Source: Corallococcus coralloides (GTDB lineage: Bacteria > Myxococcota > Myxococcia > Myxococcales > Myxococcaceae). Taken from it: a DNA stretch of 64,000 nucleotides. The notes below the pieces were generated by a model. The model ran no database searches, was not told the origin of the DNA, and was given only the letters and a program-made list of their open reading frames with translations. Of this stretch, positions 2,613 to 51,074 are shown piece by piece (positions within the stretch are counted from its first letter, which is position 1; each line of letters begins with the position of its first letter). A program made the position numbers and the translations under genes. The DNA lies in assembly GCF_004104415.1 (NCBI RefSeq), contig NZ_CP034669.1. One strand, written 5' to 3'.

Positions 2613-3128
2613 TCAGCCCAGGGACTTCATGAGCCGCGCCACGAGCGGCTCCACGAGTTCCTGCCCGCGCAGCTGTGAGCGCCAGCGGTGGGGAATCCCG
2701 TTCAGGCCGTGGATGAGCCCCGCGATGCCGCCCGCCACGCAGGCCGTGGTGTCCGTGTCGTGGCCCAGCCGGATGGCGGATTTGACGACCTCACCGTCCA
2801 CGGCGAGGTAGCCCCAGTCCTGCCAGTTCACCAGCCGCCGGCCCAGGTCCTCGCAGTCGAGCCGCTTTTGATACGTCAGTGAGTCCAGCAGGCACAGCGC
2901 GTGGGCACCGTCGTCCGACCACGTCCCCGGGGGGACACGGTCATGCGCGCGGTCGAAGCCCGGCGGCGGCGTGTATTCGATGGCCTCGGGAGACGGAATC
3001 GTCTCCGGCCGGTGGAACTCATAGGGGACGCCCAACGCATCACCGATGAGCAACCCGTACAGCCCTCCCGCAATGCGCTCCTCGCGGTTCAGCATTCCCC
3101 AACCTCCCAGGTCCGTGGGCGAACCCAT
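2613..3128 (-). CDS. ADP-ribosylglycohydrolase family protein (unusually short, 171 aa)
   Basis: N-terminal LLIGDALGVPYEF and C-terminal DTDTTACVAGGIAGLIHGL motifs typical of the DraG/ADPRH fold; middle segment missing relative to typical members. Confidence 0.7.
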   Translation of the reverse strand: MGSPTDLGGWGMLNREERIAGGLYGLLIGDALGVPYEFHRPETIPSPEAIEYTPPPGFDRAHDRVPPGTWSDDGAHALCLLDSLTYQKRLDCEDLGRRLVNWQDWGYLAVDGEVVKSAIRLGHDTDTTACVAGGIAGLIHGLNGIPHRWRSQLRGQELVEPLVARLMKSLG

Positions 3129-3253
3129 CGTGTACCAAGGACACTATCAACGTAAAGAGGGGACTGGCTCGCGCGGCGTTCACGGTTCATGCGAAGCTCT
3201 CGCGCCCTTCCTTTTCGGGCCTGGCTTCCCCATCCTCACGAGAGGCGCTCCGG

Positions 3254-6200
3254 ATGCGTCGGCTCCCCCTGCTGCTTGTCCTTGGTTTGTCTGTCCTGAC
3301 CGCCTGCTCCACCGTGGAGCCCGAGGCGCCGGATGAGCACGAGATGTCTGGCGAAACCTCGCGGGCGCAGTCCTCGCCGGTGCAACAGGATTACCACTTC
3401 GAGTTGAGGTGGGACGGCGCGGCGAAGTGCCCCACGTGCCAGTACCCGTCCTACGCCTGCTCGGACAACACCGGAAACTGGAACGGTGGGGTCCGGAGCT
3501 TCACGGATCCCGTCAAGGCCGGTTGGATTGTGATTTCCGCCGACGTGGAGCTCTTCGGCCGTGGCTACGACGGCGGACTCACGACCGTCCTGCTGAACAG
3601 CCAGGAACTGGGGGCCTTCAGCATGCCCCCGAATCCCTACCGGGTGTGCGGTGGCTGCTATACGCCGGAAGTCGGCTTCAAGGCGCCCGACTCCACGGGG
3701 ATGCCAGGCTATCGCTACGGCAGCACCAATACCTTCACGCTGCGTTCGGAGCGGACCAACTGCTTCGCCGCCGCCCGGATCCGCCTGAGGACAGGGCGGC
3801 CCCTGCTCAAGGTCAATCCATCGAGTCTGTCCTTCGGCTCGATCGCGGTGGGCACGTCCGCCTCCCAGAAGGTGAGGCTGAGCAACGAGGGCGCCGTCCC
3901 GCTGATCATCGACGCCATGTCGCTTCCCCTCCCCTTCAAGCTGACACCGGTGTCCCTGCCCTTCACACTCAAGGAAGGCGCGTTCCTGGACGTGACCGTC
4001 ACGTACGCGCCCACGGCCGACCGCGTGGACTCGGGAATCCTGAGCCTGCTGAGCAGCGACCCCGACAAGGGCTCCCTGCCGATCAAGCTCGAGGGGACGG
4101 GCGGCGCCCCGAAGCTCGAGCTCGCGCCGGCCGCGCTCGACTTCGGCGCCGTGCGCGTGGGCACGAGCAGCAGCCTGCTCCTCCAGGTGAAGAACGTGGG
4201 GAGCCTGCCGCTCACGATTCCCGCCGTGCTGACGCAGGCTCCCTTCACCGTGAGCGGCCTGCCTCCGGGGGGCAGCGTGGTGCAGCCAGGGACGGTCCTC
4301 CCGCTCACGGTGACCTTCACGGCGACGGCGGGAGTGTCGTCCCTGCCGATGTACATCCAGGCCCAGGGGTCCGCCACGCCGCTCGCGGAGGTCTCTCTGC
4401 ATGGCACGGGCATCGAACCCGCCATCGTCGTGGCGGCGACCTCGCTGGACTTCGGTGTGCACACCGCGGGGGTCGACCCTGTTCGCAAGACGCTGGCGGT
4501 CAGCAACAGCGGCCTGGACGACCTCATCCTCACCGCCTTCGACGTCGAGGCGCCGTTCACGGTGGAGTCCGGCCTTCCGCTGACGATCCAGGCCCGGGAG
4601 CAGGCGAGCCTGACGGTGACCTACGCCCCGGGGGCGGGCCGCGCCGCGAAGGACCTCATCCTGCGGAGCAATGATCCGCGTACCCCCGCCGTGAAGGTGG
4701 CGCTCACCGGCACGGGCGTGGAGGTCCCCGCGCTCAAGGTCACCGCGTCCGATGGCGGCACGGCGCTGGAGTTCGGCTCGCGCGAGGTCAGCTCCGTGAG
4801 CGCGCCCCAGACGTTGACGCTCAAGAACGAGGGGGCCGGGACGCTCGTGGTGGAGCCCATCCAGCCGCCCACGGGCTTCGCCGTGACCCCCGCGGGGCGG
4901 TTCAGCCTGGCCCCCGGCGCCACGACCCAGGTCCAGGTGACCTTCGAGCCTCCGCATATCGCCCAGTTCGCGCAGGAGCTGATGCTGAGCGCGGACGGCC
5001 CGGGTGGCTCCTCCCAGACCGTGCTGCTCAGCGGACAAGGCGTCGAAGGAAAGCTGACCGCTACTCCCTCGGCGCTGTCCTTCGCGCGGACGGAAGTGGG
5101 GAACAGCAGCAAGGCGGTGCAGGTGACGATCGTCAATTCGGGGACGGACACGCTCACCCTCAGCACCATCGCGGTGGCGGGGCCGTTCTCGGTGGTGCTT
5201 CCGGAGCTGCCGAAGGAGCTCACGCCGCGCGACGCCTTCACCATGGAGGTCACCTTCATCCCGGTCGAGGACGGCGCCGCGACCGGCGTGCTCCGTGTGT
5301 TCTCGAACGCGCCGTCGTCTCCCACGGTGGTGAAGCTGGACGGAGAGGGGCTCCAGGCCGTCGGCCGGATGGCGAGCGACGTGATGGAGTTCGGCGGCCA
5401 GCGGTTGGGGGGCCTGAGCCCGCCCCGGGAACTCACGCTGTTCAACATGGGGAGCGAGTCGCTGAACGTGACGGCGGTGAACGTGAGCGGCCCGTTCCAG
5501 GTTTCAGGGCTCAACGTGGGCACCAGCGTGCCGCCGCTCGGAAACCGCACGTTCCAGGTCAGCTACAAGCCCACCGAGGCGACCGCGGAGAACGGCGTGC
5601 TGGAGGTCCAGAGCAACGCGCCGCGCGCCGCCCAGGTGACGCTGCGGGGCACGGGGACCACTGCCGCGATGGAAACCTCCGTGACGGCGCTGACGTTCGG
5701 TTCCCAGTTCCTCGGGGAGGCCTCGCAGCGCGTCGTGGAGTTGCGCAACACCGGCACGAGCCCTGTCACCATCACGGGACTGGATCCGGTGGACGGATTC
5801 TCCGTGTCCGGGCTGCCGCTGCCCCATGTCGTGGGGCCCGGCAGCAGCCATCCCTTCTACGTCGTCTTCGAGCCGCCGCGGCCGGGCGATTACGCAGGGT
5901 CGCTCGCGGTGCGGCACGATGCGTCCTCCACGCCGCTGATGATCGCGGTGCAGGGGGCCGGCGTGGCGCAGGGGCTGACGGTGACGCCCGGAGCCATCGT
6001 GTTCGGCAACCAGCGGGTGGACGCCACCAGCCAGCCCCTTTCGTTGGAGCTCGTCAACACGGGCAACGTGCCCGTCACCGTGGAGGTGAAGTCCTCCGAT
6101 GCCGCGTTCCGCGTGGACACGAGCACGGTGAGCGGTGCCATCGCGGCCGGTGGCCGAGCCTCCATCCCGGTGACGTTCCATCCGACGCGCACGGGCACGG

Positions 6201-6391
6201 TGCGCGGCGAGGTCCGCGTGGTGCCGAGCGGAGGCGGACTGGGCCCCACGGTCGTTCCCGTGGAGGGGATTGGCGAGGCCGTCACCGTGGAGGGCAGCGG
6301 CTGCGCGGTGGGCGGGAGCGGCGGGGTCTGGGTGCTGGCGGCGTGGATGCTGGCCAGGCGGAGGGCCCGGCGCGGTCAGCAGGCCCGCTAG
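3254..6391 (+). CDS. giant cell-surface lipoprotein with about 9 tandem choice-of-anchor-D/HYDIN-like beta-sandwich repeats and MYXO-CTERM sorting tail
   Basis: Lipoprotein signal MRRLPLLLVLGLSVLTACS; about 100-aa repeats (LxFGxVxVGTSxxxxLxLxNxG...); C-terminus GSGCAVGGSGGVWVLAAWMLARRRARR is a MYXO-CTERM motif. Confidence 0.9.
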   Translation: MRRLPLLLVLGLSVLTACSTVEPEAPDEHEMSGETSRAQSSPVQQDYHFELRWDGAAKCPTCQYPSYACSDNTGNWNGGVRSFTDPVKAGWIVISADVELFGRGYDGGLTTVLLNSQELGAFSMPPNPYRVCGGCYTPEVGFKAPDSTGMPGYRYGSTNTFTLRSERTNCFAAARIRLRTGRPLLKVNPSSLSFGSIAVGTSASQKVRLSNEGAVPLIIDAMSLPLPFKLTPVSLPFTLKEGAFLDVTVTYAPTADRVDSGILSLLSSDPDKGSLPIKLEGTGGAPKLELAPAALDFGAVRVGTSSSLLLQVKNVGSLPLTIPAVLTQAPFTVSGLPPGGSVVQPGTVLPLTVTFTATAGVSSLPMYIQAQGSATPLAEVSLHGTGIEPAIVVAATSLDFGVHTAGVDPVRKTLAVSNSGLDDLILTAFDVEAPFTVESGLPLTIQAREQASLTVTYAPGAGRAAKDLILRSNDPRTPAVKVALTGTGVEVPALKVTASDGGTALEFGSREVSSVSAPQTLTLKNEGAGTLVVEPIQPPTGFAVTPAGRFSLAPGATTQVQVTFEPPHIAQFAQELMLSADGPGGSSQTVLLSGQGVEGKLTATPSALSFARTEVGNSSKAVQVTIVNSGTDTLTLSTIAVAGPFSVVLPELPKELTPRDAFTMEVTFIPVEDGAATGVLRVFSNAPSSPTVVKLDGEGLQAVGRMASDVMEFGGQRLGGLSPPRELTLFNMGSESLNVTAVNVSGPFQVSGLNVGTSVPPLGNRTFQVSYKPTEATAENGVLEVQSNAPRAAQVTLRGTGTTAAMETSVTALTFGSQFLGEASQRVVELRNTGTSPVTITGLDPVDGFSVSGLPLPHVVGPGSSHPFYVVFEPPRPGDYAGSLAVRHDASSTPLMIAVQGAGVAQGLTVTPGAIVFGNQRVDATSQPLSLELVNTGNVPVTVEVKSSDAAFRVDTSTVSGAIAAGGRASIPVTFHPTRTGTVRGEVRVVPSGGGLGPTVVPVEGIGEAVTVEGSGCAVGGSGGVWVLAAWMLARRRARRGQQAR

Positions 6392-6414
6392 GCCCCCGGG
6401 CCCGGTGCGGCCAG

Positions 6415-6477
6415 AACCTGTCCGACTGTCGGACAGGTTTCCGCGGGCCGCGGCTGTCCGACTGTCGGACAGGTTTT
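6415..6477. terminator. tandem pair of perfect palindromic hairpins (bidirectional intrinsic terminator) between convergent genes
   Basis: aacctgtccgac-t-gtcggacaggtt at 6415-6439 followed by ttt; second copy ctgtccgac-t-gtcggacag at 6454-6472 followed by GTTTT; spacer ccgcgggccgcgg is itself palindromic. Confidence 0.7.
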
Positions 6478-6512
6478 CGCAGGGTGCCTCCGCCGGGGAG
6501 GCCCTCCTGGAC

Positions 6513-8063
6513 TCAGGGGGGAGGAGGCGCGGGGACGGAGCGGGCCGAAGTGGGCTCGCCCAGGATCAACAGAAGCTCCGCGCGGCGGTTCTCGCCCCGC
6601 CCTGCCGGCGTTCCGTTGGAGCCCGCGGGCCGGCGCGCACCGAGACCCCGGGCTTCCAACCGGTGGGCCGGGACGCCCTTTCGCACGAGGTACTCGCGCA
6701 CGGCCTCCGCGCGAGCGAGGGACAGGCGCTGATTGGATGCGGTGGAGCCTTCCGCGTCCGTGTGCCCTTCGATGACGACGCGCTCCACTTCCGGATGCTC
6801 CAACAGCACCCGCGCCACCTGATCCAGGACGCGAGAGCGGCCCGGCAGCGTCGTCGCGCCGACCTCGAAGAAGACCTGGCCATGGAGGACGAGTCGCTCA
6901 CGGGTCAGCGTGACGAGCGAGTCACCAGTCTCCGGGCAGCCGCCGTGCTCTCGGGTTCCCCGCTCGTGGATGCAGGCGTCCAACACGTCCACGACACCAT
7001 CACCATCCGAGTCGGTCTCGGAGACCGGCTCGTCCTTGGCGGGCTCGGGAGGTGGAGGTTCGGAAGGCGTGGGTTCGGGTTCGAGCTGTGGCTCGGCAGG
7101 GGCACGCGGGAGCCCCTGGACCAGCTCGTAGACGATGTCCTCCGGGGGCGGAGGTGGCGGCTTGTCGAAGAGAAGCGCGAAGCCCGCGAGCACCCGGTAT
7201 CGGGGCGCTCCCGGCTCCGCGCCCAGGCCCGCGCCGCCCAACGCGAAGAACTCCCAGGGCCGCGCCGGTGCGTAGCGCAGGCCGCCCAGCAGCTCTCCGC
7301 TGGTGCGCTGCTGCCGCCACGAGTACGCGCCGAGCGCCGACACCTCCGCGCGCAGGGCGTACCCCACCGTCAGTCCCACCCCGGCCCGCAGCTCGTTGCC
7401 CACGCCGTTGAGGCTGTCCACGCCGGAGTCCGTCGAGACGGCGCGACGCAGGAGCACGCCCACTTCCAGCGCCGGAGCCACGGGCCCCCAGCGCTTGCCC
7501 ATCATGATCCGTCCCTGGCCACGGACGCCCTGATCACGCGCGAGTGCGCCCGAACCACCCACGGGCAGCCGGACATCCAGGTCGAGCGCCAGATGGAAGG
7601 CCTCGGGAGCGGAGGTCCCCAGCAGCCCCAGTCGGGCAGCGAGCCGCGGCGCCCCCAGCCCGCTGCGTGACGGCGGGGAGATGGACAGCACGGTGCTCAC
7701 GTCCGCGCCGCTCTGATGGATGACGCCAGGAAGCTGGGCCTGAAGCTCCAGCCAGGGCAGCACGCCGACGGCCAGCGACACCACGCCGGTGGTCCGGGAC
7801 AGGACGAGCGGGTATTCGTCCGGCCCATTGCGGACCGTCAGCGATCTCCGCTGGTAGTGCGCCAGGAGCGAGATGCGCAGCGCGCCGGGCGCCAGCAGCT
7901 CCCCGCTCCCCATCGTCAGGGGCCCCAGGCCCGGGTTCGGGTCCAGGCGCTCCAGGGAGAACGTGGGCAGGGGCGTGGCGTCCTGGGCACGCGCGGGGGT
8001 TGCGAGCAGCAGCAGCCCCAGCGCGGCCCCGCCCACTGCGCATCGGTGCAAGGCCGGACCCAT
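6513..8063 (-). CDS. OmpA-family outer-membrane protein with thrombospondin-type-3-like Asp-rich repeat and Pro-rich linker
   Basis: Signal peptide MGPALHRCAVGGAALGLLLLATPARAQ (start chosen at 8063); DSDGDGVVDVLDAC calcium-binding motif; C-terminal OmpA_C region (TLPGRSRVLDQVARVLLEHPEVERVVIEGHTDAEGSTASNQRLSLARAEAVREYL...NRRAELL). Confidence 0.85.
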   Translation of the reverse strand: MGPALHRCAVGGAALGLLLLATPARAQDATPLPTFSLERLDPNPGLGPLTMGSGELLAPGALRISLLAHYQRRSLTVRNGPDEYPLVLSRTTGVVSLAVGVLPWLELQAQLPGVIHQSGADVSTVLSISPPSRSGLGAPRLAARLGLLGTSAPEAFHLALDLDVRLPVGGSGALARDQGVRGQGRIMMGKRWGPVAPALEVGVLLRRAVSTDSGVDSLNGVGNELRAGVGLTVGYALRAEVSALGAYSWRQQRTSGELLGGLRYAPARPWEFFALGGAGLGAEPGAPRYRVLAGFALLFDKPPPPPPEDIVYELVQGLPRAPAEPQLEPEPTPSEPPPPEPAKDEPVSETDSDGDGVVDVLDACIHERGTREHGGCPETGDSLVTLTRERLVLHGQVFFEVGATTLPGRSRVLDQVARVLLEHPEVERVVIEGHTDAEGSTASNQRLSLARAEAVREYLVRKGVPAHRLEARGLGARRPAGSNGTPAGRGENRRAELLLILGEPTSARSVPAPPPP

Positions 8064-8278
8064 GCGCGCATCATCCGTCAGGTCCCGCCCGGGCTGAAGG
8101 GGAATGGCGGCTGGACTCGCACCTGCGGCTCCCCTCCCCCTCCCGGAAAGACGCTCATGCAAAGGCAGTCATGCGCGGAAACCTTCACGCCTGTGATGAT
8201 TGATGCGGCGGGGTGCCCCGAAGACACCGAGCCAGATATCCTATCAAGGCAGCGCGGACCCAGAACCCAGGAGGGCAC

Positions 8279-8713
8279 ATGCGAGCAGCGATCATCGCAG
8301 GGCTGATGGCTGTCGGGGTGTTGGCGGGATGTGGACGAGAGGACTTGAACCAAGACGAGCAAGGCATCCTGGCGACGCATGAGGCCGCCCTGCCATCCGC
8401 ATCGGAATGTGAAGACACGTGCGAACAACTGCGTGTCGCATGCCTCGACACCGCGGAGAACAGCGCCCAGCGCATGGTGTGTCAGCGCGACTGGCTGGCA
8501 TGCAACGAGGGCTGTGCTTCTTCCAAGGCCGCGATGGCTCCGCCGGACAGCTGTGACCCGTTCGAGGACGACGGCTGGTGTCCTGTGTCCAGCAACAAGA
8601 TCACCTGCTCCAACGGAGTCCAGATGGATGCCCACTGGACTCCGGACGGCTGGTGCATCAACGCGGACGTCTGCAAGAACTACGGCGGCCCCTGGGTCTG
8701 CCCGGAGTGGTGA
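8279..8713 (+). CDS. small Cys-rich lipoprotein, paralog A of a local family
   Basis: AGGAGG 8 nt upstream of ATG; lipobox VLAGC; C-terminal module APPDSCDPxxDDGWC...CSNG...DGWC...CKNYGGPWVC shared with 8719 and 11884 copies. Confidence 0.7.
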   Translation: MRAAIIAGLMAVGVLAGCGREDLNQDEQGILATHEAALPSASECEDTCEQLRVACLDTAENSAQRMVCQRDWLACNEGCASSKAAMAPPDSCDPFEDDGWCPVSSNKITCSNGVQMDAHWTPDGWCINADVCKNYGGPWVCPEW

Positions 8714-8718
8714 GCGCC

Positions 8719-9012
8719 ATGAAACGACAGAAGACGCTTGCACTGGCCTTCAGCGTGGGGATGATGCTCGCCGGCTGTGGACCTGGGGCCGCGCCCGCCA
8801 CGGAGACCGAAACGACCGAGGACCGGGTGCACGCCATGGCACCGCCGGACAGCTGTGATCCGGACATCGATGTCGGCTGGTGCCGGATCACCACGGACCA
8901 GGTCCGCTGCGCGAATGGCTTCTACATGTATGCCTATTTGACGCTGGATGGCTGGTGCAGCCGCTACGACGCCTGCAAGAACCAGGGCGGGCCGTACGTC
9001 TGCGGTCTGTAG
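8719..9012 (+). CDS. small Cys-rich lipoprotein, paralog B
   Basis: MKRQKTLALAFSVGMMLAGCG lipoprotein signal; same 8-Cys C-terminal module (CDPDIDVGWC...CANG...DGWC...CKNQGGPYVC). Confidence 0.7.
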   Translation: MKRQKTLALAFSVGMMLAGCGPGAAPATETETTEDRVHAMAPPDSCDPDIDVGWCRITTDQVRCANGFYMYAYLTLDGWCSRYDACKNQGGPYVCGL

Positions 9013-9059
9013 TCCTGCGTATCCTCGCCTCCCTGCCCTATCATCGGCAGTGAGGTCCA

Positions 9060-11900
9060 ACTGCCGGACAACTCCAGCCTGCACTCGGGCGGCTTGGGCA
9101 TAGAGGTCGCTATGGGAGCAGTCCACATGCGGGAATGCAAAATCAAGGGTGTCACTGGGCTTGGCGCTTGGTACATTGCTACTCACAGGCTGCGGACCTG
9201 AAGAATGGCAGGCGGCCTTGCCTGCAGCACAAGCCTAGAAATTGGCTCACAACGCGAGCACAACAACCCGACCCAACAACAGCCAAAGAACACAACCCAA
9301 AGAGCCAATCCCACCACCAAGACCACCCAACAAAAATCGCCCACCGCTCGAAAACATCACACAAACACACACTCAAAAACCATTCATCAATGACCCTGAC
9401 ACCACACGATGAAGAATCGAATTTCGAAGCCGAAGTAATAAGAATAGCAAGGCAACTTTGGAAGACCGCTGAGTTCGGCGGAAGCCAAATTGAGGACGGC
9501 AGAGAAAGGGATGGTGTTTTCGTCGGAGAAGACACTGTCAATCTCGTCGAATGCACCGTCTCACGCAGAAAAGACAAGGCAGAGAAGGATGTCGGCAAGC
9601 TCATCGACCTGTCGGAAAAATTCCGAAAAACCCACCCCGACAAAGGAATTAAGGCTTGGTTCATCACCCGAGACGAGCCAACCGCAGATCAACGCAGCGT
9701 CGCACAAGCCACACAAAGCCGTGTTATAGCTGTCAGCTTCGACCAGTTTCGGTCTCGGCTAATTGACGCACGCTCCTATATTGATGCTCGAGGCCACTAC
9801 GCATTCGGGAGCATTCGCGATCCAGAGACGGGAAGCACGACCGATCGCACAGAGTATATTCCTCTTGATCTTTTAGCTCGCGAAAGCGGGGCACCACGCA
9901 CAATCAAGGATATTGCCAAAAAAGTCACAACAGGAAGTCGCTTTGTATTGCTGGGAGACTACGGAGCAGGCAAGAGCACCAGCCTAAGAGAAATTTTCTT
10001 TAGCGTAGTCAGCCTATTCAATAACAACAAGTGCCGAGCATTTCCCGTCCACTTGAATTTGCGCGACCACCAAGGCCAAACAAATCCTGCCGAGGCACTT
10101 CTTCGACACGGCACCAACATCGGCATGCCGAACCCCCTGCATCTTGTGCGAGCATGGCGAGCCGGATATGTCGTCGTTCTGCTAGACGGATTCGATGAGA
10201 TTGTAACAGCGGGCTGGGTGGGGCGCAGCAAAAAACTCAAAGAGTGGCGCCACCGCTCAGTCCAACTAATTCGAGAATTCGTCAAATCCACCCCGCCAGA
10301 CATTGGGCTTGTGGTTTCCGGCAGAGAGCATTTTTTTGACAGCACAAAAGAACTCACTGGAGCCCTGAGCACTGGCGAGGGATTTGAGATTTTGACTCTC
10401 AATGAATTCTCCGACGACCAGATCAAGGCATTTCTTGCCAAGAAGGGCTGGTCCGGCCCAGTTCCCGAGTGGCTCCCATCACGACCGCTCCTATTGGGGT
10501 ACCTGGCAGCAAAGGGGCTTTTACAAAAGACTCTTGAAGTAGATGCTGGCTCAAGCCCAGCCGCTGGATGGCATGCATTGCTGGATAGGATTTGTACACG
10601 CGAAGCCGAGATCGAAGCAGGCCTTGACGGGGAGACAATTCGGCGAATAATTGAGCAAATCGCAACAATCGCCAGAAGAGCTACTGATGGCCTTGGGCCC
10701 TTGGGCAGCCAGGACATAGTATCCGCTTTTAGCGAAGTCTGCGGCTATCCTCCCGATGAAATGGCAACGGTGCTTCTGCAACGCCTGCCTGGCCTAGGAG
10801 TTCACTCAGCGGGCGATGAATCCCGCGCGTTTATTGATCGTGACTTTGCGGCTGCGGCCAGGGCGGGCGATATTTTCCGTTATATTGAGGACCCATACTC
10901 CCACTCACTACGAGACCCTCAATCCTGGCAATGTCCGTTTGACGAATTGTCGACACAGGTCACCGCGCTTCGCATATCGGGAGCTCAAATTGACCCCAAG
11001 AAGATCAGCATTGCTACACAGAGAGCTGCCGAGAGCGCGGGGTGGGACATCGCAGCCCTTGATCTGATTCGTACAGGATACGAAGTTGGCGCACCGCGCC
11101 TATCTGGAAAGATGTACATAACAGAAGCATTCGTTTCATCGTTCGAGCTACATGAAGAGGAGACCGTCTGGACTGGAATTGAATTTCAAGATTGCATCTT
11201 CGGCCGATTGACCGTCCCGCCGGAAACCGATCTTGAAGCCTGCCCGCGCTTCGTACGGTGCCATTTCGGAATAGTAGATGGCCTGAATGAGAAAGATGGA
11301 CTTCCCGAAGGTATATTCGAAAACTGTACTTGCGACGCATTCGAGCAAAAAGTCCACACAACGGTAGGACTGCTCAACCTCTCGATCCCACTCGGGTCCA
11401 GAGTATTGCTTACTATCCTCAAGAAGCTTTACATGCAGCGAGGGACGGGCCGAAAGGAGAGCGCACTGTATCGAGGCTTAGATCATCGTGCCCGGCGACT
11501 TGTCCCTGACATTCTTTCGCTACTAGTGAGCGAAGGATTAGTAGTCAAAGCACGCGGAGGTGAACAAGTTGTCTGGCTTCCCGAGAGGTCCCATAGTGGG
11601 CACATTAGGCGGATTTTAGCCTCACCTGAAACCACGACTGACCCTTTGGTTTTGAAGGCAGGTCAGATTGTATGACTAAAAACCATTAACTACCCACATT
11701 TCCATCAGAACGGCCGGCATTTACAGGTGCACCCTGAGAAATCAGGTCGCCATCTGCAGTTTGCACCTGCGCCCCTCACGCCCTGTCAAGCGATATTTGA
11801 TGGGGCTTTATGCTCGACGCATAACCACGCATCGTGCGTACCCCGAGTCCATTCAGAAACCAATGCTTTGACTCCGGTTTCTGCATCGGCCCTGACGGTC
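9060..11900. other. low-GC (about 50%) horizontally acquired island inserted in the Cys-rich lipoprotein paralog array
   Basis: Abrupt base-composition drop versus about 70% flanks; bounded by about 88%-identical copies of the lipoprotein 3' end plus terminator (8850-9065 vs 11890-12130); carries a single large ORF. Confidence 0.7.
9390..11675 (+). CDS. NACHT-like STAND P-loop NTPase with N-terminal Mrr/NERD-like nuclease-fold domain; candidate antiphage defence protein (bNACHT/Avs-like)
   Basis: 761 aa; Walker A VLLGDYGAGKST; Walker B VVVLLDGFDE (NACHT-diagnostic DGFDE); sensor-1-like GLVVSGRE; N-terminal FEAEVIRIARQLW...RERDGVF...VNLVECTVSRRKDK resembles Mrr-cat/NERD; long C-terminal region without recognisable repeats. 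Confidence 0.75.
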   Translation: MTLTPHDEESNFEAEVIRIARQLWKTAEFGGSQIEDGRERDGVFVGEDTVNLVECTVSRRKDKAEKDVGKLIDLSEKFRKTHPDKGIKAWFITRDEPTADQRSVAQATQSRVIAVSFDQFRSRLIDARSYIDARGHYAFGSIRDPETGSTTDRTEYIPLDLLARESGAPRTIKDIAKKVTTGSRFVLLGDYGAGKSTSLREIFFSVVSLFNNNKCRAFPVHLNLRDHQGQTNPAEALLRHGTNIGMPNPLHLVRAWRAGYVVVLLDGFDEIVTAGWVGRSKKLKEWRHRSVQLIREFVKSTPPDIGLVVSGREHFFDSTKELTGALSTGEGFEILTLNEFSDDQIKAFLAKKGWSGPVPEWLPSRPLLLGYLAAKGLLQKTLEVDAGSSPAAGWHALLDRICTREAEIEAGLDGETIRRIIEQIATIARRATDGLGPLGSQDIVSAFSEVCGYPPDEMATVLLQRLPGLGVHSAGDESRAFIDRDFAAAARAGDIFRYIEDPYSHSLRDPQSWQCPFDELSTQVTALRISGAQIDPKKISIATQRAAESAGWDIAALDLIRTGYEVGAPRLSGKMYITEAFVSSFELHEEETVWTGIEFQDCIFGRLTVPPETDLEACPRFVRCHFGIVDGLNEKDGLPEGIFENCTCDAFEQKVHTTVGLLNLSIPLGSRVLLTILKKLYMQRGTGRKESALYRGLDHRARRLVPDILSLLVSEGLVVKARGGEQVVWLPERSHSGHIRRILASPETTTDPLVLKAGQIV

Positions 11901-12086
11901 CGCGCCGTGGAACCACCGACCAACTGTGATCCAGACATCGACGTCGGCTGGTGCCGGATCTCCACCGACCGCGTCCGCTGCGCCAACGGCTTCTACATGT
12001 ATGCCTATTCGACGCCGGACGGCTGGTGCATCCGTTACGACGCTTGTGTCAGCCAGGGCGGACCGTACGTCTGCGGTCTGCAATGA
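11884..12086 (+). pseudogene. 5'-truncated remnant of Cys-rich lipoprotein paralog C (signal peptide lost at island junction)
   Basis: About 88% nucleotide identity to 8850-9012 including stop and downstream hairpin (ccctgccctcacatgggggcaggg); no signal peptide; upstream ATG at 11727 gives a non-secretory leader. Confidence 0.6.
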
Positions 12087-12135
12087 AGTCCTCCTCCCTG
12101 CCCTCACATGGGGGCAGGGAGGTCCCACGGCCCAA

Positions 12136-12987
12136 TCACTTCCCAGCGCGCTGAGCCGCCTCCAGCGTGTTCTTCATCAGCATCGCAATCGTCATCGGGC
12201 CCACGCCACCCGGCACCGGAGTAATGAACGACGCGCGCTCGGACGCCGCAGCGAACTCCACGTCCCCCACCAGTTTGCCGTCCGCCTTGCGGTTCATGCC
12301 CACGTCAATCACCACCGCGCCGGGCTTGATCCACGCGCCCTTCACCAGCTCCGGCACGCCCACCGCCACCACCAGGATGTCCGCCTGGGCCACCTCCGAC
12401 GGCAGGTCGCTCTTGCGGTGGCACACCGTCACCGTCGCGTCCTTCTGGAGCAGCATCAGCGCCTGCGGCTTGCCCACGATGTTGCTGCGGCCCACCACCA
12501 CCGCGCGCTTGCCCGCCGGATTGCACCCCACCTCCTCCAACAGCCGCATCACCCCATAGGGCGTGCACGCCCGCGTCGCCGGCCGTCCCAGGAGCAGGTT
12601 GCCCGCGTTCATCGGGTGGAAGCCGTCCGCGTCCTTCTCCGGCTTCACCGCCGCGATGATGGCGTCCGCGTCAATGTGCTTGGGCAACGGCAGCTGCACC
12701 AGGATGCCGTGCACGGCCGGGTCCTCGTTCAGCCGGTGCACCAGCGCCAGGAGCGCGTCCTGGGTGATGGTCTCGTCCGGGTGGTGCTCCCAGGAGTTGA
12801 AGCCCACCTCCTCGGCGGCCTTCTTCTTCCCCGTCACATAAATCTTGGACGCCGGGTCCTCACCCACGCGCACCACGGCGAGCCCCGGGGTGATGCCGCG
12901 CTCCGCCTTCAGGCGCGTCACCTCCTCCTTGATCTCCGCCCGCACGCGCGCCGCCACTGCCTTGCCGTCAATCAACTGAGCCGTCAT
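12136..12987 (-). CDS. folD: bifunctional methylenetetrahydrofolate dehydrogenase/cyclohydrolase
   Basis: 283 aa from [13 protein letters not shown]...; FolD motifs ([49 protein letters not shown]). Confidence 0.93.
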
Positions 12988-41642: not shown

Positions 41643-42170
41643 TCAGAGCTCTTCGTAGGAGACGTTGGCGTTGGTGTAGACGCAGATGTCCGCGGCGATG
41701 GCCATGGCCTGCGTGCAGATGTCACGGGCGGACAGGTTGGAGTGCGCCTGGAGGGCGCGCGCGGCGGCCAGGGCGTAGTGGCCCCCGCTGCCCACGGCGG
41801 CGATGCCATGGTCCGGTTCGATGACGTCACCCGCGCCGGACAGGATGAAGGTCTTCTCCTTGTCCGCGACGATGAGCAGCGCCTCCAGGCGGCGGAGGAA
41901 GCGGTCGGTGCGCCAGTCCTTGCCCAGCTCCACGCAGGCGCGGGCCAGGTTCTTCTGGTGCTCCTTGAGCTTGGCCTCGAAGCGCTCGAAGAGGGTGAAG
42001 GCGTCCGCGGTGCTGCCCGCGAAGCCGGCGAGCACCTGCCCCTCGCCCAGCTTGCGCACCTTGCGCGCCGTGTTCTTCATGATGGTCTTGTCGAGGCTGA
42101 CCTGGCCGTCGCCCGCGATGACGACCTTCCCGTCACGGCGGACGCAGAGGATGGTGGTTCCGTGGAACAT
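41643..42170 (-). CDS. hslV: ATP-dependent protease subunit HslV
   Basis: [25 protein letters not shown]-terminal Thr protease signature. Confidence 0.95.
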
Positions 42171-42251
42171 GACTGGGGGTTTAACAAGACCGCCCGGCCG
42201 CGACCCACAAAAACCGCGCGGCTGTCCGCTCCCTCACCCTGCGCAGGGCGC

Positions 42252-42641
42252 TCAGGTCGCGGTCGCTTTCATCCAGCGGCCCACAAGCTTAACCAGAGCC
42301 GCTTTCTTCGCCTTCACCGTCTTCGCGTCCGGCAGCGTCACCACGCCCCGGTCCGGCGCCAGCCACTCCACCAGCCCGGAGTCGTCCTCGAAGGCGAAGC
42401 CCGTCGCGTCCTTCACCTTCGCGCCCCGGTGGAGGATGACCTGGAAGATGCCCTTGGGGGCCAGGCGGAACGTCACGCGGTCATCACCCGAGTGCACGAA
42501 GCTGGGGGCCTTCCACTTGATCCGCTCGGTGATGCTGTCGTCGGAGGCGAGGATGGCCGCGCGCACGGCTTGGATCTCCGCCTTCAGCGGGTGCTCGAGA
42601 TCCGCCATGAACTGCTCGACTTCGTCAGCGTGGTTCGCCAT
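42252..42641 (-). CDS. DUF1801 (YdhG-like) domain protein
   Basis: 129 aa from MANHADEVEQFMADLEHPLK...; family-typical ...KWKAPSF... block. Confidence 0.65.
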   Translation of the reverse strand: MANHADEVEQFMADLEHPLKAEIQAVRAAILASDDSITERIKWKAPSFVHSGDDRVTFRLAPKGIFQVILHRGAKVKDATGFAFEDDSGLVEWLAPDRGVVTLPDAKTVKAKKAALVKLVGRWMKATAT

Positions 42642-42687
42642 GGCCCGTCCTCCGTTCAAGCTTGCCGCAGGATGAGTTCCGCCCCAC

Positions 42688-43176
42688 TCATTCAAAGACA
42701 TGAATCAGGACCGCCACCTGACGCTCCCGGTCCTCCACCTCGCAACTCAACATCTGCGAGACGCCCGCCGGGAGCCGGATTTCGATCCCTTTCGCGCGAG
42801 ACGCATCTTCCACACTGTCAACGATGACGTAGGGTTCGGCTTGCACCCGGAAAGACACTCGTTCGACCACGGAGTGAAGACTCGAATCAAATTCGAGCGC
42901 AGTCTGGAGTAGGAGCACCTCGTCAGGAGCATATCTCCACCTGACAACCATCGGCCCCTCCGGCCGCGAGATGACGCAAGTGCGAAGGGGTTCATCAGCC
43001 AGGACCACTACGTCGCCCCAGTCCCGCTTGATAACCGCCGACGACGTATAAATCGAGCAAGCCTCATCATAGTCCTTCGTCTTGACGCCTTCCCACATCT
43101 TCGTCTTGGAAATGGGCAGCATGACGAATGGACCGCCCAATGACTCGATCCACTCACTTTGCTCGAACTTCATCAC
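42688..43176 (-). CDS. orphan immunity-like protein (second gene of low-GC cassette downstream of RHS toxin)
   Basis: 162 aa; GC about 53%; RBS GGAGTG; no signal peptide; position within Rhs-associated immunity cassette. Confidence 0.5.
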   Translation of the reverse strand: MMKFEQSEWIESLGGPFVMLPISKTKMWEGVKTKDYDEACSIYTSSAVIKRDWGDVVVLADEPLRTCVISRPEGPMVVRWRYAPDEVLLLQTALEFDSSLHSVVERVSFRVQAEPYVIVDSVEDASRAKGIEIRLPAGVSQMLSCEVEDRERQVAVLIHVFE

Positions 43177-43307
43177 TCAGTCACTCCTGCCCAACTCCGC
43201 CGAGGAACTGCCAGTCGCCGTCGTCGCGCGACACCAATAGAGCCCGATGCGTCCTCTGGAACACATGCGAACAGACGCAAGCCGGAGACTCAGCCTCACC
43301 CATGGAT

Positions 43308-43757
43308 TCAGTCCTGTCTCAGTATTGGCTCTTCGTAATCCGCGATGTCTCCAGACGCGACCGCTTCTTCCAGGTATCGCCGAACCTCCTTGAGCGATGC
43401 ATTTTCCGGCACGCTGAGGGCAATCAGTTGATAGGCCGGCAACGACTCGCTCGTGCATCCCAGCCGCTCCAGCGCGGACCTGATGTCAGCAGAATCGACA
43501 TCCTCGGGAACGACAATTCGAATCAACGAATTGTTCGACCTCCCTACGGTGGAGCGATACCAGAGCTGGCCATCCTCTTCAGCGACCTCAATCTCGTCAC
43601 CCAAGGTTGCGTCTCGAACGAAAAAGGGCGTGTTATCCAGGACAAATCGCCCGTTCCCGGATGAACGAGCCCAAAGGCTCTCCACGCCGACTGGAGGATA
43701 CCCATCCTCATCCTGCTCGAGGCGAAAGAAGATTTTCCTGATTTCACTCACGGCCAT
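43308..43757 (-). CDS. cognate immunity protein candidate for the RHS HNH-nuclease toxin
   Basis: 149 aa acidic protein; its ATG overlaps the toxin stop (ccATGgccgTGA = PWP* / MAV); low GC. Confidence 0.6.
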   Translation of the reverse strand: MAVSEIRKIFFRLEQDEDGYPPVGVESLWARSSGNGRFVLDNTPFFVRDATLGDEIEVAEEDGQLWYRSTVGRSNNSLIRIVVPEDVDSADIRSALERLGCTSESLPAYQLIALSVPENASLKEVRRYLEEAVASGDIADYEEPILRQD

Positions 43758-46700
43758 GGATATTTATCACCCTTCTCTCGATTACAATCCCGACACAGGA
43801 CCTGGCCATTCTCTGGCGACCCTTTTCCTCCCTTGGATTCAGGAATCACATGGTCAACTTGGGTTTCATTTCCAGGAGGTCTCACGCCTGACCGGCTCTG
43901 CTGTGAGGGTACTGTTGTAGTGCCGCAGTTTTCGCAAACGGTATCGCCTCCATTTCTGGCCCGATTCTCTTCGACGACTATATCTCTGCCTTTTCGCGTA
44001 AAAGACTTGCCGCTACGGTCCTTTGCTGACGAAAAGACTGCCAGCCCCTTCGTTGCATCAGCCACTCCCTCCGCCCCGACGACCAGCGAACCTGCAACCG
44101 CGGCGGCAGAAACAGCTGCGACAGGCACCCCCACTGCGGCGCCGACTCCTGTGAAGCTGATGGCGCCCCCTATCCCTTCGCCGGCAACTCCACCCACGAA
44201 CATGCCAGCGGCCGCGTAGAGCTCCATCAGGCTGACGGCCCCCATTCCGACACCATAACCACGGTAGAAGTCCTGGGTCTGATCCTCGGGAATCGGCAGC
44301 AGATGCCCTGCCGGGAGCAATCCCGCCATGACGCCCATCAGACCGCCCCCCAGCCCCTGGGTCAGCCGCGTCAGCAACACGTTGACCTCGTCGGGATGAT
44401 AGACGGTCGTTTCGAGCAACGTGATGGACTCGGTGATCTCACCACCCTTCGAATAATCCGTCGACCGGAGGTGACTCTGCTCCAGAGAGGTATAGGACTG
44501 ATCGCCGAAGCGGATCTCCATCGTAACGGGCTCGTAGTTCGGCGAGCGCTCGAAGAGGCCGGGCCCATAGCCTGATGCCGGGCTCCTGCTTACCGGCTCG
44601 GTCCAGTTACTGAAATCGCGGCCAATCTCCGCTCCGTACCAACTGTCGTAGTAGTAGATCAGCTCCATCGACATGAAGCCGGACGGGTCCGTGTAGCGCA
44701 GCGGGTTGTTCAACACATAGCTGTACCGGTTGAACGACTGCCCCCACAAAGGCGCCTGCACCACGGGATCCGGGCTCAGGAAGCGGCCCAGCCTTGGGTC
44801 GTAGATGCGCCCCCGCATGTTCACGAGCTCGAACTCCGAGTCCTGCTCGTGGCCCGTGAAGGAGTGCCGGACCTCGTGCGAGGCCCCCTGCCACTTCAGC
44901 GACAGGTCCAGCGGATGACGCCGCGCTCCGAACGGGTCGTACTTCATCCGGCCCACGACGAGGCCGGCATCGTCAGTCACCGACTCCGTGGAGCCCAGGT
45001 GATCCGAGTGCATGTAGCGCCACTGCTTCTTGATCGCCACGCCCGAAGCAGCCTCGACCCGCCAGGTCACCTCGGCAATCCCCCGCTCCGCCGCGCTCAC
45101 ATGGAATGAATGCGTGACGGCGCCCCCCGGCTCACGGCGCTCCTCGTAGAGACCACCGACATACGTGGTCATCGTCCCATCCGAGTGCCGCTTCACGGTC
45201 CGGGCGTTGTTCGCCGAGTACCGGTACGACACGCTCTGCTGACCGTCCATGATGCGGGAGGGAAGATGGAAGCCCGTGAACTCCACCGTCCGCCCCGGCG
45301 CGGACGTCTGGTTGCCGCTGGCGTCGTAGCCATAGCTCCCCGCCTGAGACCCCGTCAGCGCATGCGGCCCTGCCGGGCCGGCGCCATAGGTGAAAGTCTC
45401 GGACTCGCTCGCCCCCAGGGTGGAGGTCCAGCCCAGCAGGTTGCCCAGATCATCATACGAATAGGATTGGATGGTGTTGCGGCAGTTCTGGACGATGTTC
45501 CATTCGGTCAGCCGGTCCAATCCGTCATAGTGGAAGTCCTCGGTCGTCCTCGCGAGCCGATCATGCCGACTTCTGACATTTCCGTTCGGCTGGTACTCGT
45601 AGGCCAGCTGCTGGAGCGGAACCGTTCCCTTCTGGCTGTCAATGAAGCGCAGCCGGCCCATCGAATCGTAGAGCCGCTGTGTCACCACGCCATTGCCCAG
45701 GCTTTCGGACGTGAGCTGCCCCAGGGCGTTACGCTCCAACACCTTCCACTTCTCACTCAGCGTCTCTAGGTCCCGGACGCTCCGGAGATAGCCTTGAGAG
45801 GTGTATTCATAACCCAGGCGCAATCGCGTCCCCGCGACAGCAGGGTACTCCAGACTCAGTGACCGTCCGTAGGCGTCGTAGCTTCGGTCAATGGCATACG
45901 CGCGCCCCTCCACCAGCCATTGCTCCTGCGTGAGCCTGCCGAGGGTGTCATAGCCATAGGCCACGGCGATGTCGTCCGTGGTCGTCGCCGGATCTCCTTC
46001 ACGTACGCTGCCCATGAGCAGTCCAGGCATACTGGGTCCCTGGGCGGGGGTGTCCCACGTGAAGCGGTCGACTCCATCCCGGCTGCTGGTCACCGTGACC
46101 GGCCGGCCCAGCACATCCCGGACATAGGTCGTCACGACCTGTGACGCATCCTCGGTCCGATCAATCTCTCCCAGGGCCGTGTAGCGGGTGGTGGTCAGGC
46201 CCGAGTCCGGTGTTCGCAGCGAGGTCCGACGCCCGAGCCGGTCGTAGCCCAGGAGCGTTTCGTTCCCCTGGGGATCCAGCACCCGCTGGAGCTGTCCAAA
46301 GGGCCCATACTGATACGTCGACTCCAACCACGGCGCGGTGAACGCCGTCCGCTCCATGCTCTTGATGACCCGGCCATTCACGTCGTTCAAGAAGCGGCGG
46401 GAATTGCCGTTCTCATCGGTGGTGGTGACCTGGAACCCCTCGCGATAGCCGCGGTACCAGGCGCTCGACACCGACCCATCCGGATGGGTCGTCTTGAGCA
46501 GGCGGTTGAGCGGATCATACTGGTAGGCCGTCACCATGCCGGTGGCGCCCCCCTGCGGATCCGGATCGGTCACCTCCACCACCCGTCCCAGGGCATCGAA
46601 CTTCCTCGTGCTGATGGCCTGGGTGCCATTGAACGAGAGCCGGCTCGATCTTACGGACCGCCCCAGGCGGTCATAGTCGACGGTGACGGTCTGCCCTCCC

Positions 46701-50140: not shown

Positions 50141-50223
50141 TGATTCGCCTGAAGAAGCAGCTTGAAAAGGAAACGCATGCGGGTCACGCATGGAAGACAT
50201 TCGCACGGTACGCTCGGGCTCGT

Positions 50224-50778
50224 TCACGACTCGGAGCCACCGGGGTTGCAGGAGATTCCCGGGCACAGGCGGTTCGTGTTGCACGAACCATCACAGCACT
50301 TGTACTGCCCCTGCGGGCACGCGGGCGGAGGCGGCGTGACACACTGGCCATTCGTGCACGTATCACCCTGGGAGCAGGTGCCACACTGAAGGGTTCCCCC
50401 GCAGCCATCCGAGGCCGGGCCACACGTCACCCCGAGGTCGGCGCAAGTCATTGGGGCACATTGGCACACATTGTCCGCGCAAGCGATTCCGGAACCGCAG
50501 GTGCCACAGTTCAACCACGCGCCACACCCATCCGGCATGGCCCCACAGTTCTTGCTCAACCCCTGGCAGGTGAATGGCGCACAGCTGCAGGCGAGGTCAC
50601 TCGTGCGGCAGACGTCGTCTTCGTCCACCCACCCGTCGCAATCATCATCCCGGCCATTGCAGACCTCCGCCGCGGGAGTACAAGCCGCGTCCGCTGTCGA
50701 AGGCACTACGAGCCCGACCGCCAACCACGCCACAGTCAGGAGCCACACCCAGCGAAGCGGCTTCGTGAGAATCGTCAT
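50224..50778 (-). CDS. secreted cysteine-rich repeat protein with MopE-like CNGxDDDCDGxVDE metal-binding motif
   Basis: Signal peptide MTILTKPLRWVWLLTVAWLAVGLVVPSTADA; about 36 Cys in 184 aa in CxxxTCxxLGxxCGxxxDGCGxxLxCGTC repeats. Confidence 0.7.
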   Translation of the reverse strand: MTILTKPLRWVWLLTVAWLAVGLVVPSTADAACTPAAEVCNGRDDDCDGWVDEDDVCRTSDLACSCAPFTCQGLSKNCGAMPDGCGAWLNCGTCGSGIACADNVCQCAPMTCADLGVTCGPASDGCGGTLQCGTCSQGDTCTNGQCVTPPPPACPQGQYKCCDGSCNTNRLCPGISCNPGGSES

Positions 50779-51074
50779 GTCAGTGCTGAATCCAAAAGGG
50801 GGCGCGAGTCCGCGATGAGTGGCACCGCCAACCGCGAGGAGTCGCGCTTCTACATCATGCCCCCAAAGAAAATCCAGACATGGGCCGGAAGTACGCGCGG
50901 ACCCATGCCTGGATGCCTGCTTTCACGATCTTCAGGAGTTGTCTGGATTCAACCCGTGCCAGCAGTTGCGTGGCCAATGCGTGGCGCATCGCCTGCGGGC
51001 ACACCTGACATGGTCGGGGAAGCCTGGGCCTCCCCCGAGCCACGCAGGATTCGCGGCGCGCCGCGAGCCCTGCC

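Follow-up and report, generated by a model that had tools for sequence, protein, structure and literature searches.

A stretch of 64,000 nucleotides (nt) of the Corallococcus coralloides contig NZ_CP034669.1 (assembly GCF_004104415.1), referred to here as the window, contains a low-GC block with a single gene at positions 9059 to 11896, between an array of Cys-rich lipoprotein genes and the gene folD. We consider this block to be the horizontally acquired cargo of a chromosomal hotspot, and we consider its only gene to encode a NACHT-nuclease that would work by an infection-triggered, abortive mechanism; the probability that we assign to this reading is about 65%. The block is one cargo state of a recurrent, strain-variable hotspot for conflict genes, which lies between the last lipoprotein gene with its hairpin and folD. 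The cargo found at the same site in related strains is unrelated to the block, and the divergence between strains rises toward the site. Therefore, the block is regarded as horizontally acquired cargo of a variable hotspot. The foreign composition of the block, its absence from the relatives examined, the variability of the hotspot, the membership of the protein in the NACHT clade, the nuclease fold of its N-terminal domain, and the widespread and fixed architecture of its family are shown directly. By analogy with proteins that have been studied experimentally, the block is probably a one-gene anti-phage system.

A low-GC block at a strain-variable site

A drop in GC content over approximately 2.8 kb had been described in a first-pass annotation of this DNA, and the drop is real. 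With all other 2838-nt windows of the 64-kb stretch taken as the reference set, the GC content of the block is 0.527 against a mean of 0.689 (standard deviation, 0.030; minimum elsewhere, 0.604), which gives z = -5.4. In sliding windows of 300 nt, the GC content is 0.47-0.55 from approximately 9200 to 11900 and approximately 0.70 on both sides, and this dip is the deepest of the whole window. The GC content at third codon positions (GC3) of the NACHT open reading frame (ORF) is 0.516, compared with 0.93 for folD, 0.91 for a gene encoding a 1045-amino-acid (aa) ASH-domain protein, and 0.77-0.82 for the lipoprotein genes. The order of the elements is the OmpA-family gene, lipo1, lipo2, hairpin A, the low-GC block, a lipoprotein remnant, hairpin B and folD, with the following coordinates:

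6513..8162, minus strand: OmpA-family gene, the conserved left flank (Pfam OmpA, E 2.5e-21), found in all syntenic Corallococcus loci
8279..8713, plus strand: lipo1, 144-aa Cys-rich lipoprotein with a C-terminal 6-Cys domain; lipobox LAGC; C-domain DNA 67% identical to lipo2
8719..9012, plus strand: lipo2, Cys-rich lipoprotein of 97 aa with which the intact part of the array ends; identical to QAT86315.1; lipobox LAGC
9028..9056, plus strand: hairpin A, which repeats the folD-side terminator hairpin in slightly degenerate form and marks the end of homology with most relatives
9059..11896, plus strand: foreign low-GC block (island), GC 0.527, z = -5.4, not present at the syntenic site in any related assembly examined
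9245..9389, plus strand: A+C-rich leader directly upstream of the start codon, 85% A+C (A64 C59 G13 T9)
9390..11675, plus strand: NACHT-nuclease gene, 761 aa, 100% identical to RefSeq WP_164933303.1
11676..11896, plus strand: non-coding 3′ tail of the foreign block, GC 0.529, without homology to related loci
11897..12086, plus strand: remnant that keeps just the C-terminal domain of a third lipoprotein paralog, 85% identical to 8826-9009, without start, signal peptide or lipobox
12093..12122, no strand assigned: hairpin B, a perfect GC-rich terminator hairpin (inverted repeat) common to the remnant and the convergent folD
12136..12987, minus strand: folD, the conserved right flank (Pfam THF_DHG_CYH and THF_DHG_CYH_C)

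The 144-aa lipo1 has an ortholog in the conspecific type strain DSM 2259 and in AB011P. Inside the block, the NACHT gene is the sole ORF with family support, and no integrase or transposase occurs among the ORFs of the block or their family matches, as the annotation had stated. The window contains no tRNA genes, an Rfam scan of 8000-12400 gave no match, and promoter and terminator scans of the same interval gave nothing beyond expectation. The marks of an integrase-borne island (an integrase or transposase, a tRNA or attachment (att) target, and att-type direct repeats) are thus lacking in the block. An imperfect direct repeat of 20 nt (at 9185 and 11723) had also been proposed to mark the inserted core. 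The repeat is present, but its alignment score is at chance level (best local score of 13, compared with 12.1 ± 1.8 in shuffled boundary zones, 34% of which score at least 13), and we reject it as an insertion mark. This repeat apart, the existence of a low-GC, single-gene block between lipoprotein 3′-end copies is confirmed, and the interpretation given in the annotation, a horizontally acquired defence island, is supported in its essentials: the acquisition is upheld by the composition of the block and its absence from relatives, while the defence function is drawn from family resemblance and context.

Syntenic loci were reached through the lipoprotein family, which is confined to Corallococcus (6 clusters). 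A scan of species genomes with FolD listed at least three Corallococcus loci, one of them a contig of 1.2 kb, and exact look-ups of the NACHT, FolD and lipo2 proteins of the window matched no contig. The frame from the OmpA gene to folD is common to nine assemblies, and these hold eight different cargo sets because one assembly duplicates the cargo of DSM 2259. In 8/8 related Corallococcus assemblies with the same flanks, the cargo between the last lipoprotein gene and folD is unrelated to the NACHT block:

C. coralloides DSM 2259 (locus L088) and the Logan assembly SRR29904089 (L089), 5.4 kb: Wzy_C, HTTM, SdpA, SdpC toxin and transglycosylase
AB011P (L092): a 290-aa HNH_2 protein
Corallococcus sp. 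AB030 (L090), 9.8 kb: Mrr_cat, four DDE transposases and unknowns
CP079946 (L082): a SUKH/SMI1 protein and a 158-aa protein
C. exiguus strains (L081, L085 and L086): three different sets of unknowns

The cargo spans 1.2-9.8 kb and is often a single gene. Among the three C. exiguus strains, one has a PIN_8 gene to the left of the array and another has an IS5 element inside it. Besides the NACHT-nuclease, the types of cargo at the hotspot include HNH_2, Mrr_cat and PIN_8 proteins as well as an SdpC toxin cassette and a SUKH immunity protein; a PADLOC scan of eight other cargo proteins (L081, L082, L085 and L086), several of which have no known domain, yielded 0 matches. When five of the loci were compared directly, their cargo segments had no mutual similarity, and the other four differ in called gene content. 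Homology between the window and L081, L082, L085 and L086 breaks at a common left point (window 9058-9065), and homology with DSM 2259 ends at the stop codon of lipo2. In two more distant species, the hairpin and folD are kept and other genes lie beyond them; in one of these, C. praedator, a remnant of the lipoprotein C-domain lies directly beside the hairpin.

The refuting condition named in the annotation, the same insert with native-like composition in all close relatives, is not borne out: the close relatives examined lack the insert, and their syntenic loci contain nothing related to the NACHT gene. However, none of the relatives examined combines an empty site with an intact third lipoprotein paralog. 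The first-pass annotation had envisaged a single insertion into the lipoprotein array; the foreign block is there, but it is better described as one state of a site whose content changes repeatedly from strain to strain.

Chromosomal hotspots for defence and accessory genes between core genes have been described for Pseudomonas, E. coli and Vibrio. The Corallococcus site resembles them in its fixed core-gene flanks, its strain-specific and mostly conflict-related cargo, the lack of a dedicated integrase, and the signs of recombination in the flanks. It differs from them in that it is very small and framed by a duplicated unit of lipoprotein 3′ end and terminator hairpin, and in that anti-phage-like nucleases occur among its cargo side by side with genes for interbacterial toxins and immunity.

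Individual strains offered further observations on the hotspot. In DSM 2259 (L088 10424-14560), an sdpABC-like cassette (SdpC toxin, SdpA and HTTM protein) is accompanied by a Wzy_C membrane protein and a transglycosylase, and it resembles a Bacillus-type cannibalism toxin locus, here in a myxobacterium. In AB030, an extra copy of the lipoprotein gene and a duplicated fragment of the 3′ end of folD (L090 14338-14673 and 19137-19235) lie among the four DDE transposase genes; therefore, the activity of insertion sequences also remodels the hotspot. In C. carmarthensis (L001, NZ_RAWE01000456.1), folD stands alone on a contig of 1210 bp, and these assembly breaks on both sides of the gene fit repeated or variable DNA at the hotspot.

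The NACHT-nuclease protein and its family

The GenBank call for the gene (QAT86316.1, EJ065_4774; 846 aa), which lies on a contig of 9.59 Mb, begins at the ATG at 9135. Judged from the sequence, the true start is the ATG at 9390 and not that at 9135, because RefSeq uses it and because most of the listed homologs (750-771 aa) align from that Met. The start at 9135 adds 85 low-complexity residues, which are read from the A+C-rich leader. This leader contains the longest G-free run of the 64-kb window (41 nt, ending at the ATG) and no Shine-Dalgarno sequence (9245-9389), and the regions upstream of the homologs in two other loci (L083 and L084) do not share it. Its role may be that of an unstructured leader for S1-dependent translation. 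The protein is divided as follows:

9390..9797, plus strand: PD-(D/E)xK restriction-endonuclease-fold domain, residues 1 to ~136, with invariant E39, D41, E54, T56, S58 and K63
9942..10442, plus strand: NACHT P-loop NTPase core, recognised by Pfam NACHT, motifs and Foldseek
10840..11675, plus strand: C-terminal region, residues ~484-761, delimited by the secondary structure of the AlphaFold2 model

The annotation had named a STAND NTPase as the sole cargo, and Pfam and structure matches both bear this out. The Pfam NACHT family PF05729 matches the protein at 33.3 bits (gathering cut-off, 26.7; E 5.2e-8), and it also matches 30/30 members of the family. The Walker A motif GDYGAGKS (residues 189-196, nt 9954-9977) has the form of the GxxxxGK[ST] P-loop, and G189, D190, Y191, G192, G194, K195 and S196 are invariant in 30 homologs. 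According to Kibby et al. (doi 10.1101/2022.07.19.500537), the NACHT clade is marked by the signature D[GAS]hDE. This signature is present as D266-G-F-D-E270 in the Walker B segment LLDGFDE (residues 264-270, nt 10179-10199), and all five residues are invariant in the 30 homologs. The AlphaFold2 model of the 761-aa protein has a mean predicted local distance difference test (pLDDT) score of 82 and a predicted template modelling (pTM) score of 0.79. The top folds in the Protein Data Bank (PDB) according to Foldseek are NOD2, NLRC4, NLRP3, NAIP5 and Avs3, and the E values of 7e-11 to 1e-8 to NOD2, NLRC4, NLRP3 and NAIP5 reflect a shared NLR fold consisting of a nucleotide-binding domain, a helical domain and a winged helix. 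By every sequence and model criterion tested, the protein is a NACHT-clade STAND NTPase.

The N-terminal domain was identified by structure comparison only; searches of PDB sequences with the whole protein and with the N-domain profile gave no match, and neither did Pfam on the isolated N- and C-terminal parts. The alpha-beta-beta-beta-alpha-beta core of the PD-(D/E)xK superfamily is present. Across 30 sequences from several phyla, D41, E54 and K63 do not vary, and E39, T56, S58 and R59 are likewise invariant. D41 lies on strand 2 and E54 on strand 3; the +2 position is occupied by T56 and not by K, and the invariant K63 lies on the next helix. This arrangement of T56 and K63 would fit either a domain whose lysine has migrated or one that is inactive. 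Across the 30 family members, Pfam gave a weak Card1_endonuc match in 7, NA-iREase1 in 2 and Mrr_cat in 1. We consider the predicted nuclease activity of the domain to be likely, not certain.

The C-terminal region, which is described from the secondary structure of the AlphaFold2 model, would comprise helices (484-566), short paired beta-strand repeats (575-651) and a terminal winged-helix-like unit. Many of its residues are invariant across phyla, and it is presumed to be the sensor. No signal peptide, secretion-associated domain or adjacent immunity gene was found for the protein.

More than 1200 relatives of the NACHT-nuclease protein were found, and nearly all of the best 120 are full length (676-795 aa) and 45-60% identical to it. 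Geobacter, Gemmatimonadota and Thermoflexales are named sources among the matches listed, and Chloroflexota are also represented. A search of 1.84 billion representatives with the N-domain profile recovered 548 clusters at 50% identity. In these the domain is at the N-terminus, mostly of proteins of 750-780 aa, although the shorter matches may be fragments; therefore, the architecture is considered to be fixed. The gene is solitary in 2/2 homolog loci examined. The closest homolog listed is 60% identical and also occupies a one-gene block of low GC content (0.50 in a contig of approximately 0.67). A full-length homolog with 36% identity and all motifs kept is carried by the temperate Pseudomonas phage Haddon, 620 nt from a tyrosine integrase gene, and another homolog resides on an Erwinia plasmid of 37 kb. 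In the phage record itself (PQ571161.1; L087 4202-8277), CDS0027, called "hypothetical protein", is the tyrosine integrase (Pfam E 2.5e-18), and CDS0030, divergent from CDS0027, is the full-length family member. The best PADLOC scores of the window protein are those of mad3 (E 0.012) and PtuA (0.039), both of which cover the P-loop only. Other family members, but not the window protein, have weak PADLOC matches to mad8 of the MADS system (8/30, best E 1.4e-7) and to Csx1 (five). No experimental data on the family of approximately 760 aa were found in the literature searched, and a literature search on MADS and mad8 yielded nothing of use.

The nearest well-studied parallel is provided by bNACHT25/32, which belong to clade 6 of the bacterial NLR-related proteins (doi 10.1101/2022.07.19.500537; PMC12169576). 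In these proteins, a PD-(D/E)XK DNase is joined to a NACHT module and to a C-terminal domain of helical structure (NCH1). The coat protein of a phage sets off their degradation of DNA, and protection depends on the nuclease residue D48, so that a D48A mutant no longer defends (PMC12169576). Like them, the window protein is encoded by a single gene and has an N-terminal PD-(D/E)xK effector, a central NACHT module with D[GAS]hDE and a C-terminal region that is largely helical and of the non-repeat type, and its acidic active-site residue occupies a similar position (D48 there, D41 here). In contrast to bNACHT25/32, its modelled C-terminus has beta-strand repeats and a winged-helix-like end. Judged from the sequence, the window protein is not a close relative of bNACHT25; the hhalign probability of its N-domain profile against the first 96 residues of bNACHT25 is 0.2%, a comparison with a partial sequence that is compatible with distant homology. 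The N-domain is closer to the cleavage domains of Card1/Can2 and of type IIS enzymes than to Mrr. However, Card1/Can2 are switched on by a CARF domain that binds cyclic oligoadenylate, whereas the regulator here is a NACHT NTPase. The protein also differs from Avs3/Avs4, which are 1500-2000 aa long, have large TPR-like sensors and belong to a different STAND clade, whereas the window protein, with its 761 aa, falls within the NACHT clade and is recognised by no PADLOC model.

The flanking repeat and the route of entry

The two lipoprotein 3′-end copies and the hairpin that the first-pass annotation placed at the ends of the block are both present, although the identity of the copies (8826-9009 and 11897-12080, without gaps over 184 nt) is 85% and not the approximately 88% reported. 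A third paralogous copy, in the lipo1 C-domain (8524-8707), is 67% identical. As had been described, the downstream copy has neither start nor signal peptide at the boundary of the island; it begins at approximately 11885-11897, and the frame upstream of it has no lipobox or hydrophobic signal. The remnant at 11897-12086 shares 86.5% identity with the lipoprotein gene that comes last in C. exiguus L081, and the two copies in the window represent two allelic types, with GL* and GLQ* as the ends of the protein, each of which occurs alone in other strains.

The hairpin sequence CCCTGCC...GGCAGGG has one exact match in the 64 kb, where 0.04 are expected by chance. The hairpin adjoins folD in seven relatives (L002, L069, L081, L085, L088, L090 and L092), and in L081, L086 and L092, as in the window, it also follows the lipoprotein gene that is the last intact one. 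We considered whether it might be a dispersed recombination site of the repetitive extragenic palindromic (REP)-like or attC-like kind, and we rejected this candidate, since in the window and in the related loci it occurs only at the OmpA-folD locus. The right-hand lipoprotein 3′-end copy measures approximately 190 nt in the window, approximately 35 nt in AB011P and 12 nt in DSM 2259, where it is reduced to the post-stop spacer GAAGTCCCCCTC. A 12-nt direct repeat of GAAGTCCCCCTC around the DSM 2259 cargo was likewise dismissed as a target-site duplication; it is better explained as the spacer and the first bases of the hairpin, a leftover of an old duplication, because the stop codon is followed by this spacer both in the window's right-hand copy and in L081.

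According to the simplest reading of these sequences, the flanking repeat would be the remnant of an older tandem duplication of the lipoprotein gene with its hairpin, which has eroded differently from strain to strain. On this reading, which agrees with the truncated downstream copy described in the first-pass annotation, the repeat is not the product of this insertion, and it is not a target-site duplication. The gap inside the old duplication would have become a site of insertion and replacement, and each turnover of cargo would have eroded the second copy from its 5′ side.

The identity of the window to DSM 2259 is 97.5-98.5% far from the site, drops to 83-95% over 2800-9012, and is 92.5-95.5% in the half of folD nearest the site (the 3′ half), after which it recovers. 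The flanks of AB030 are mosaic, with 96-97% identity on the left and only 87% on the right; those of AB011P are 94.5% and 96.3% identical, respectively. Strains have probably exchanged cargo through homologous recombination in the flanks that they have in common, because a rise in divergence on both sides and mosaic flanks are expected if segments that include the cargo recombine through the flanks. As to the original entry, the block would most likely have come into the gap between the two copies of lipoprotein 3′ end and hairpin by illegitimate recombination, an event that would have deleted the 5′ part of the third lipoprotein paralog; later cargo swaps between strains would then have taken place by homologous recombination in the flanks.

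Two other origins of the block must be weighed against this one. It is possible, but in our view unlikely, that the block arrived on a self-mobile or circular element, such as a decayed prophage, an integrative element, or a circle integrated by a Campbell-type single crossover. Under the last variant, the circle would have carried a copy of the lipoprotein 3′ end with the hairpin, and the crossover itself would have created the 85%-identical direct repeat; this would account for direct repeats of approximately 230 nt that flank the block exactly and for the two copies being allelic types of different strains, as a crossover with foreign Corallococcus DNA gives, and the homolog on a temperate phage also speaks for mobile carriage. 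However, no integrase, transposase, tRNA, att-like repeat or phage gene is present in or beside the block, and the similarity between the two copies stops approximately 10 nt past the hairpin, without extension into folD. The sequence after hairpin A was rejected as a remnant of the folD 3′ end, which a Campbell-type unit would contain: in local alignments at five loci, a fraction of 0.22-0.83 of the shuffles scored at least as high as observed. The shorter right-hand remnants in AB011P (35 nt) and DSM 2259 (12 nt) lie beside different cargo; therefore, an old, eroded duplication fits better than a fresh Campbell event. That the block is instead a native gene of atypical composition is close to impossible. 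Its intact reading frame is compatible with this origin, and nothing beyond that favours it, whereas the nearest homolog listed is only 60% identical, and the GC3 of 0.52 against 0.91-0.93 and the absence of the gene from the same site in the conspecific type strain DSM 2259, as in all other relatives examined, already refute it.

Elsewhere in the window, the ADP-ribosylglycohydrolase gene (ORF 2613-3128, minus strand) has approximately 450 nt missing at approximately 2790 compared with DSM 2259, AB030 and AB011P, where the protein has 311 aa, and by this comparison it is probably disrupted in the strain of the window. The step down in identity to DSM 2259 starts at this junction (~2790). A Rhs/TcdB/SpvB-type polymorphic toxin of 2178 aa with an HNH nuclease tip at its C-terminus (43748-50284, minus strand) is located in a second stretch of reduced GC content (42000-51000, GC 0.55-0.65), and this region is probably another acquired conflict locus.

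Predicted function and its meaning

We propose that the C-terminal region would hold the protein as an ADP-bound, autoinhibited monomer. A cue from the infection, which could be a protein of the phage or a host factor that the infection has altered, would release the autoinhibition; the NACHT module would then bind NTP and oligomerise, and the clustered N-terminal nuclease domains would cut DNA, which would result in abortive infection. We infer the trigger, the oligomerisation, the nuclease activity, the anti-phage phenotype and the route of entry; the three-step mechanism is based on the analogy with bNACHT25/32 and with the nuclease-bearing Avs proteins.

Several observations weigh against the reading of the block as an acquired anti-phage system. 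The neighbouring genes are housekeeping genes and not other defence systems, and the other cargoes of the hotspot are partly genes of interbacterial conflict (SdpC toxin and SUKH immunity) and not anti-phage genes. No PADLOC model (PADLOC-DB v2.0.0, 2023) matches the window protein at E <= 0.01; therefore, no curated defence family claims it. The threonine in place of the motif lysine and the two weak NA-iREase1 matches make catalytic competence less than certain. The conservation of the C-terminal region, in proteins that are 45-60% identical over their full length across phyla, is unusual for a sensor engaged in an arms race with phages. Fast evolution of surface proteins could contribute to the divergence of the left flank, although it cannot account for the identity gradient inside folD. 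Moreover, there is no empty site among the relatives and no donor closer than 60% identity among the matches listed, and the route of entry is therefore conjecture.

Some of these points can be accommodated by other functions for the same protein. It is rather improbable that the N-terminal fold is catalytically dead and serves as a module for DNA binding or oligomerisation, so that the protein would be a sensor, a regulator or a scaffold, or would need an unlinked effector. The replacement of the canonical motif lysine (E54-x-T56) argues for such a role, as do the weak matches of two family members to Pfam NA-iREase1, the "NACHT-associated inactive REase", and the winged-helix-like unit of the C-terminal model. 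We find it distinctly improbable that the NLR-like nuclease is a switch for conflict or cell death that acts in interbacterial antagonism, kin discrimination or developmental cell death and not against phages, a view that likens the protein to the NACHT/STAND conflict systems enriched in multicellular bacteria. The SdpC-toxin cassette of DSM 2259 and the SUKH immunity protein of CP079946 have interbacterial functions and are held at the same hotspot, the Rhs-HNH polymorphic toxin is 32 kb away, and a highly conserved C-terminal region would suit a conserved cellular cue. However, the family occurs in many non-multicellular phyla (Geobacter, Gemmatimonadota and Chloroflexota), in a Pseudomonas phage and on an Erwinia plasmid; the features expected of a secreted or immunity-paired protein are absent, namely a signal peptide, a secretion-associated domain and an adjacent immunity gene; and the NACHT-nuclease proteins that have been tested are anti-phage (PMC12169576).

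A bolder extension, which we put forward tentatively and hold to be doubtful, is that the family of approximately 760 aa is an uncharacterised kind of single-gene, NLR-like immune nuclease that guards an invariant feature of the host or of nucleic acids, and, at the same time, that the hotspot is an integrase-free site of cassette exchange. The C-terminal module is 45-60% identical from myxobacteria to Geobacter, Chloroflexota and a Pseudomonas phage; therefore, it would guard an invariant feature and not a variable phage protein. The duplicated repeats of lipoprotein 3′ end and terminator hairpin would let cargo be looped out or captured by homologous recombination.

Both NACHT-nuclease defence proteins and defence hotspots are already established, and current concepts are unchanged by this case. 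The locus is a clean natural example of how a high-GC, recombination-proficient soil bacterium exchanges one conflict gene for another at a very small, fixed location where no dedicated mobility gene is present. It also draws attention to a large family whose architecture is fixed (at least 548 clusters at 50% identity) and for which PADLOC-DB v2.0.0 (2023) contains no model. To our knowledge, few tested defence systems are known in myxobacteria. The family of approximately 760 aa is a reasonable candidate for a phage-defence screen, with its myxobacterial members included.

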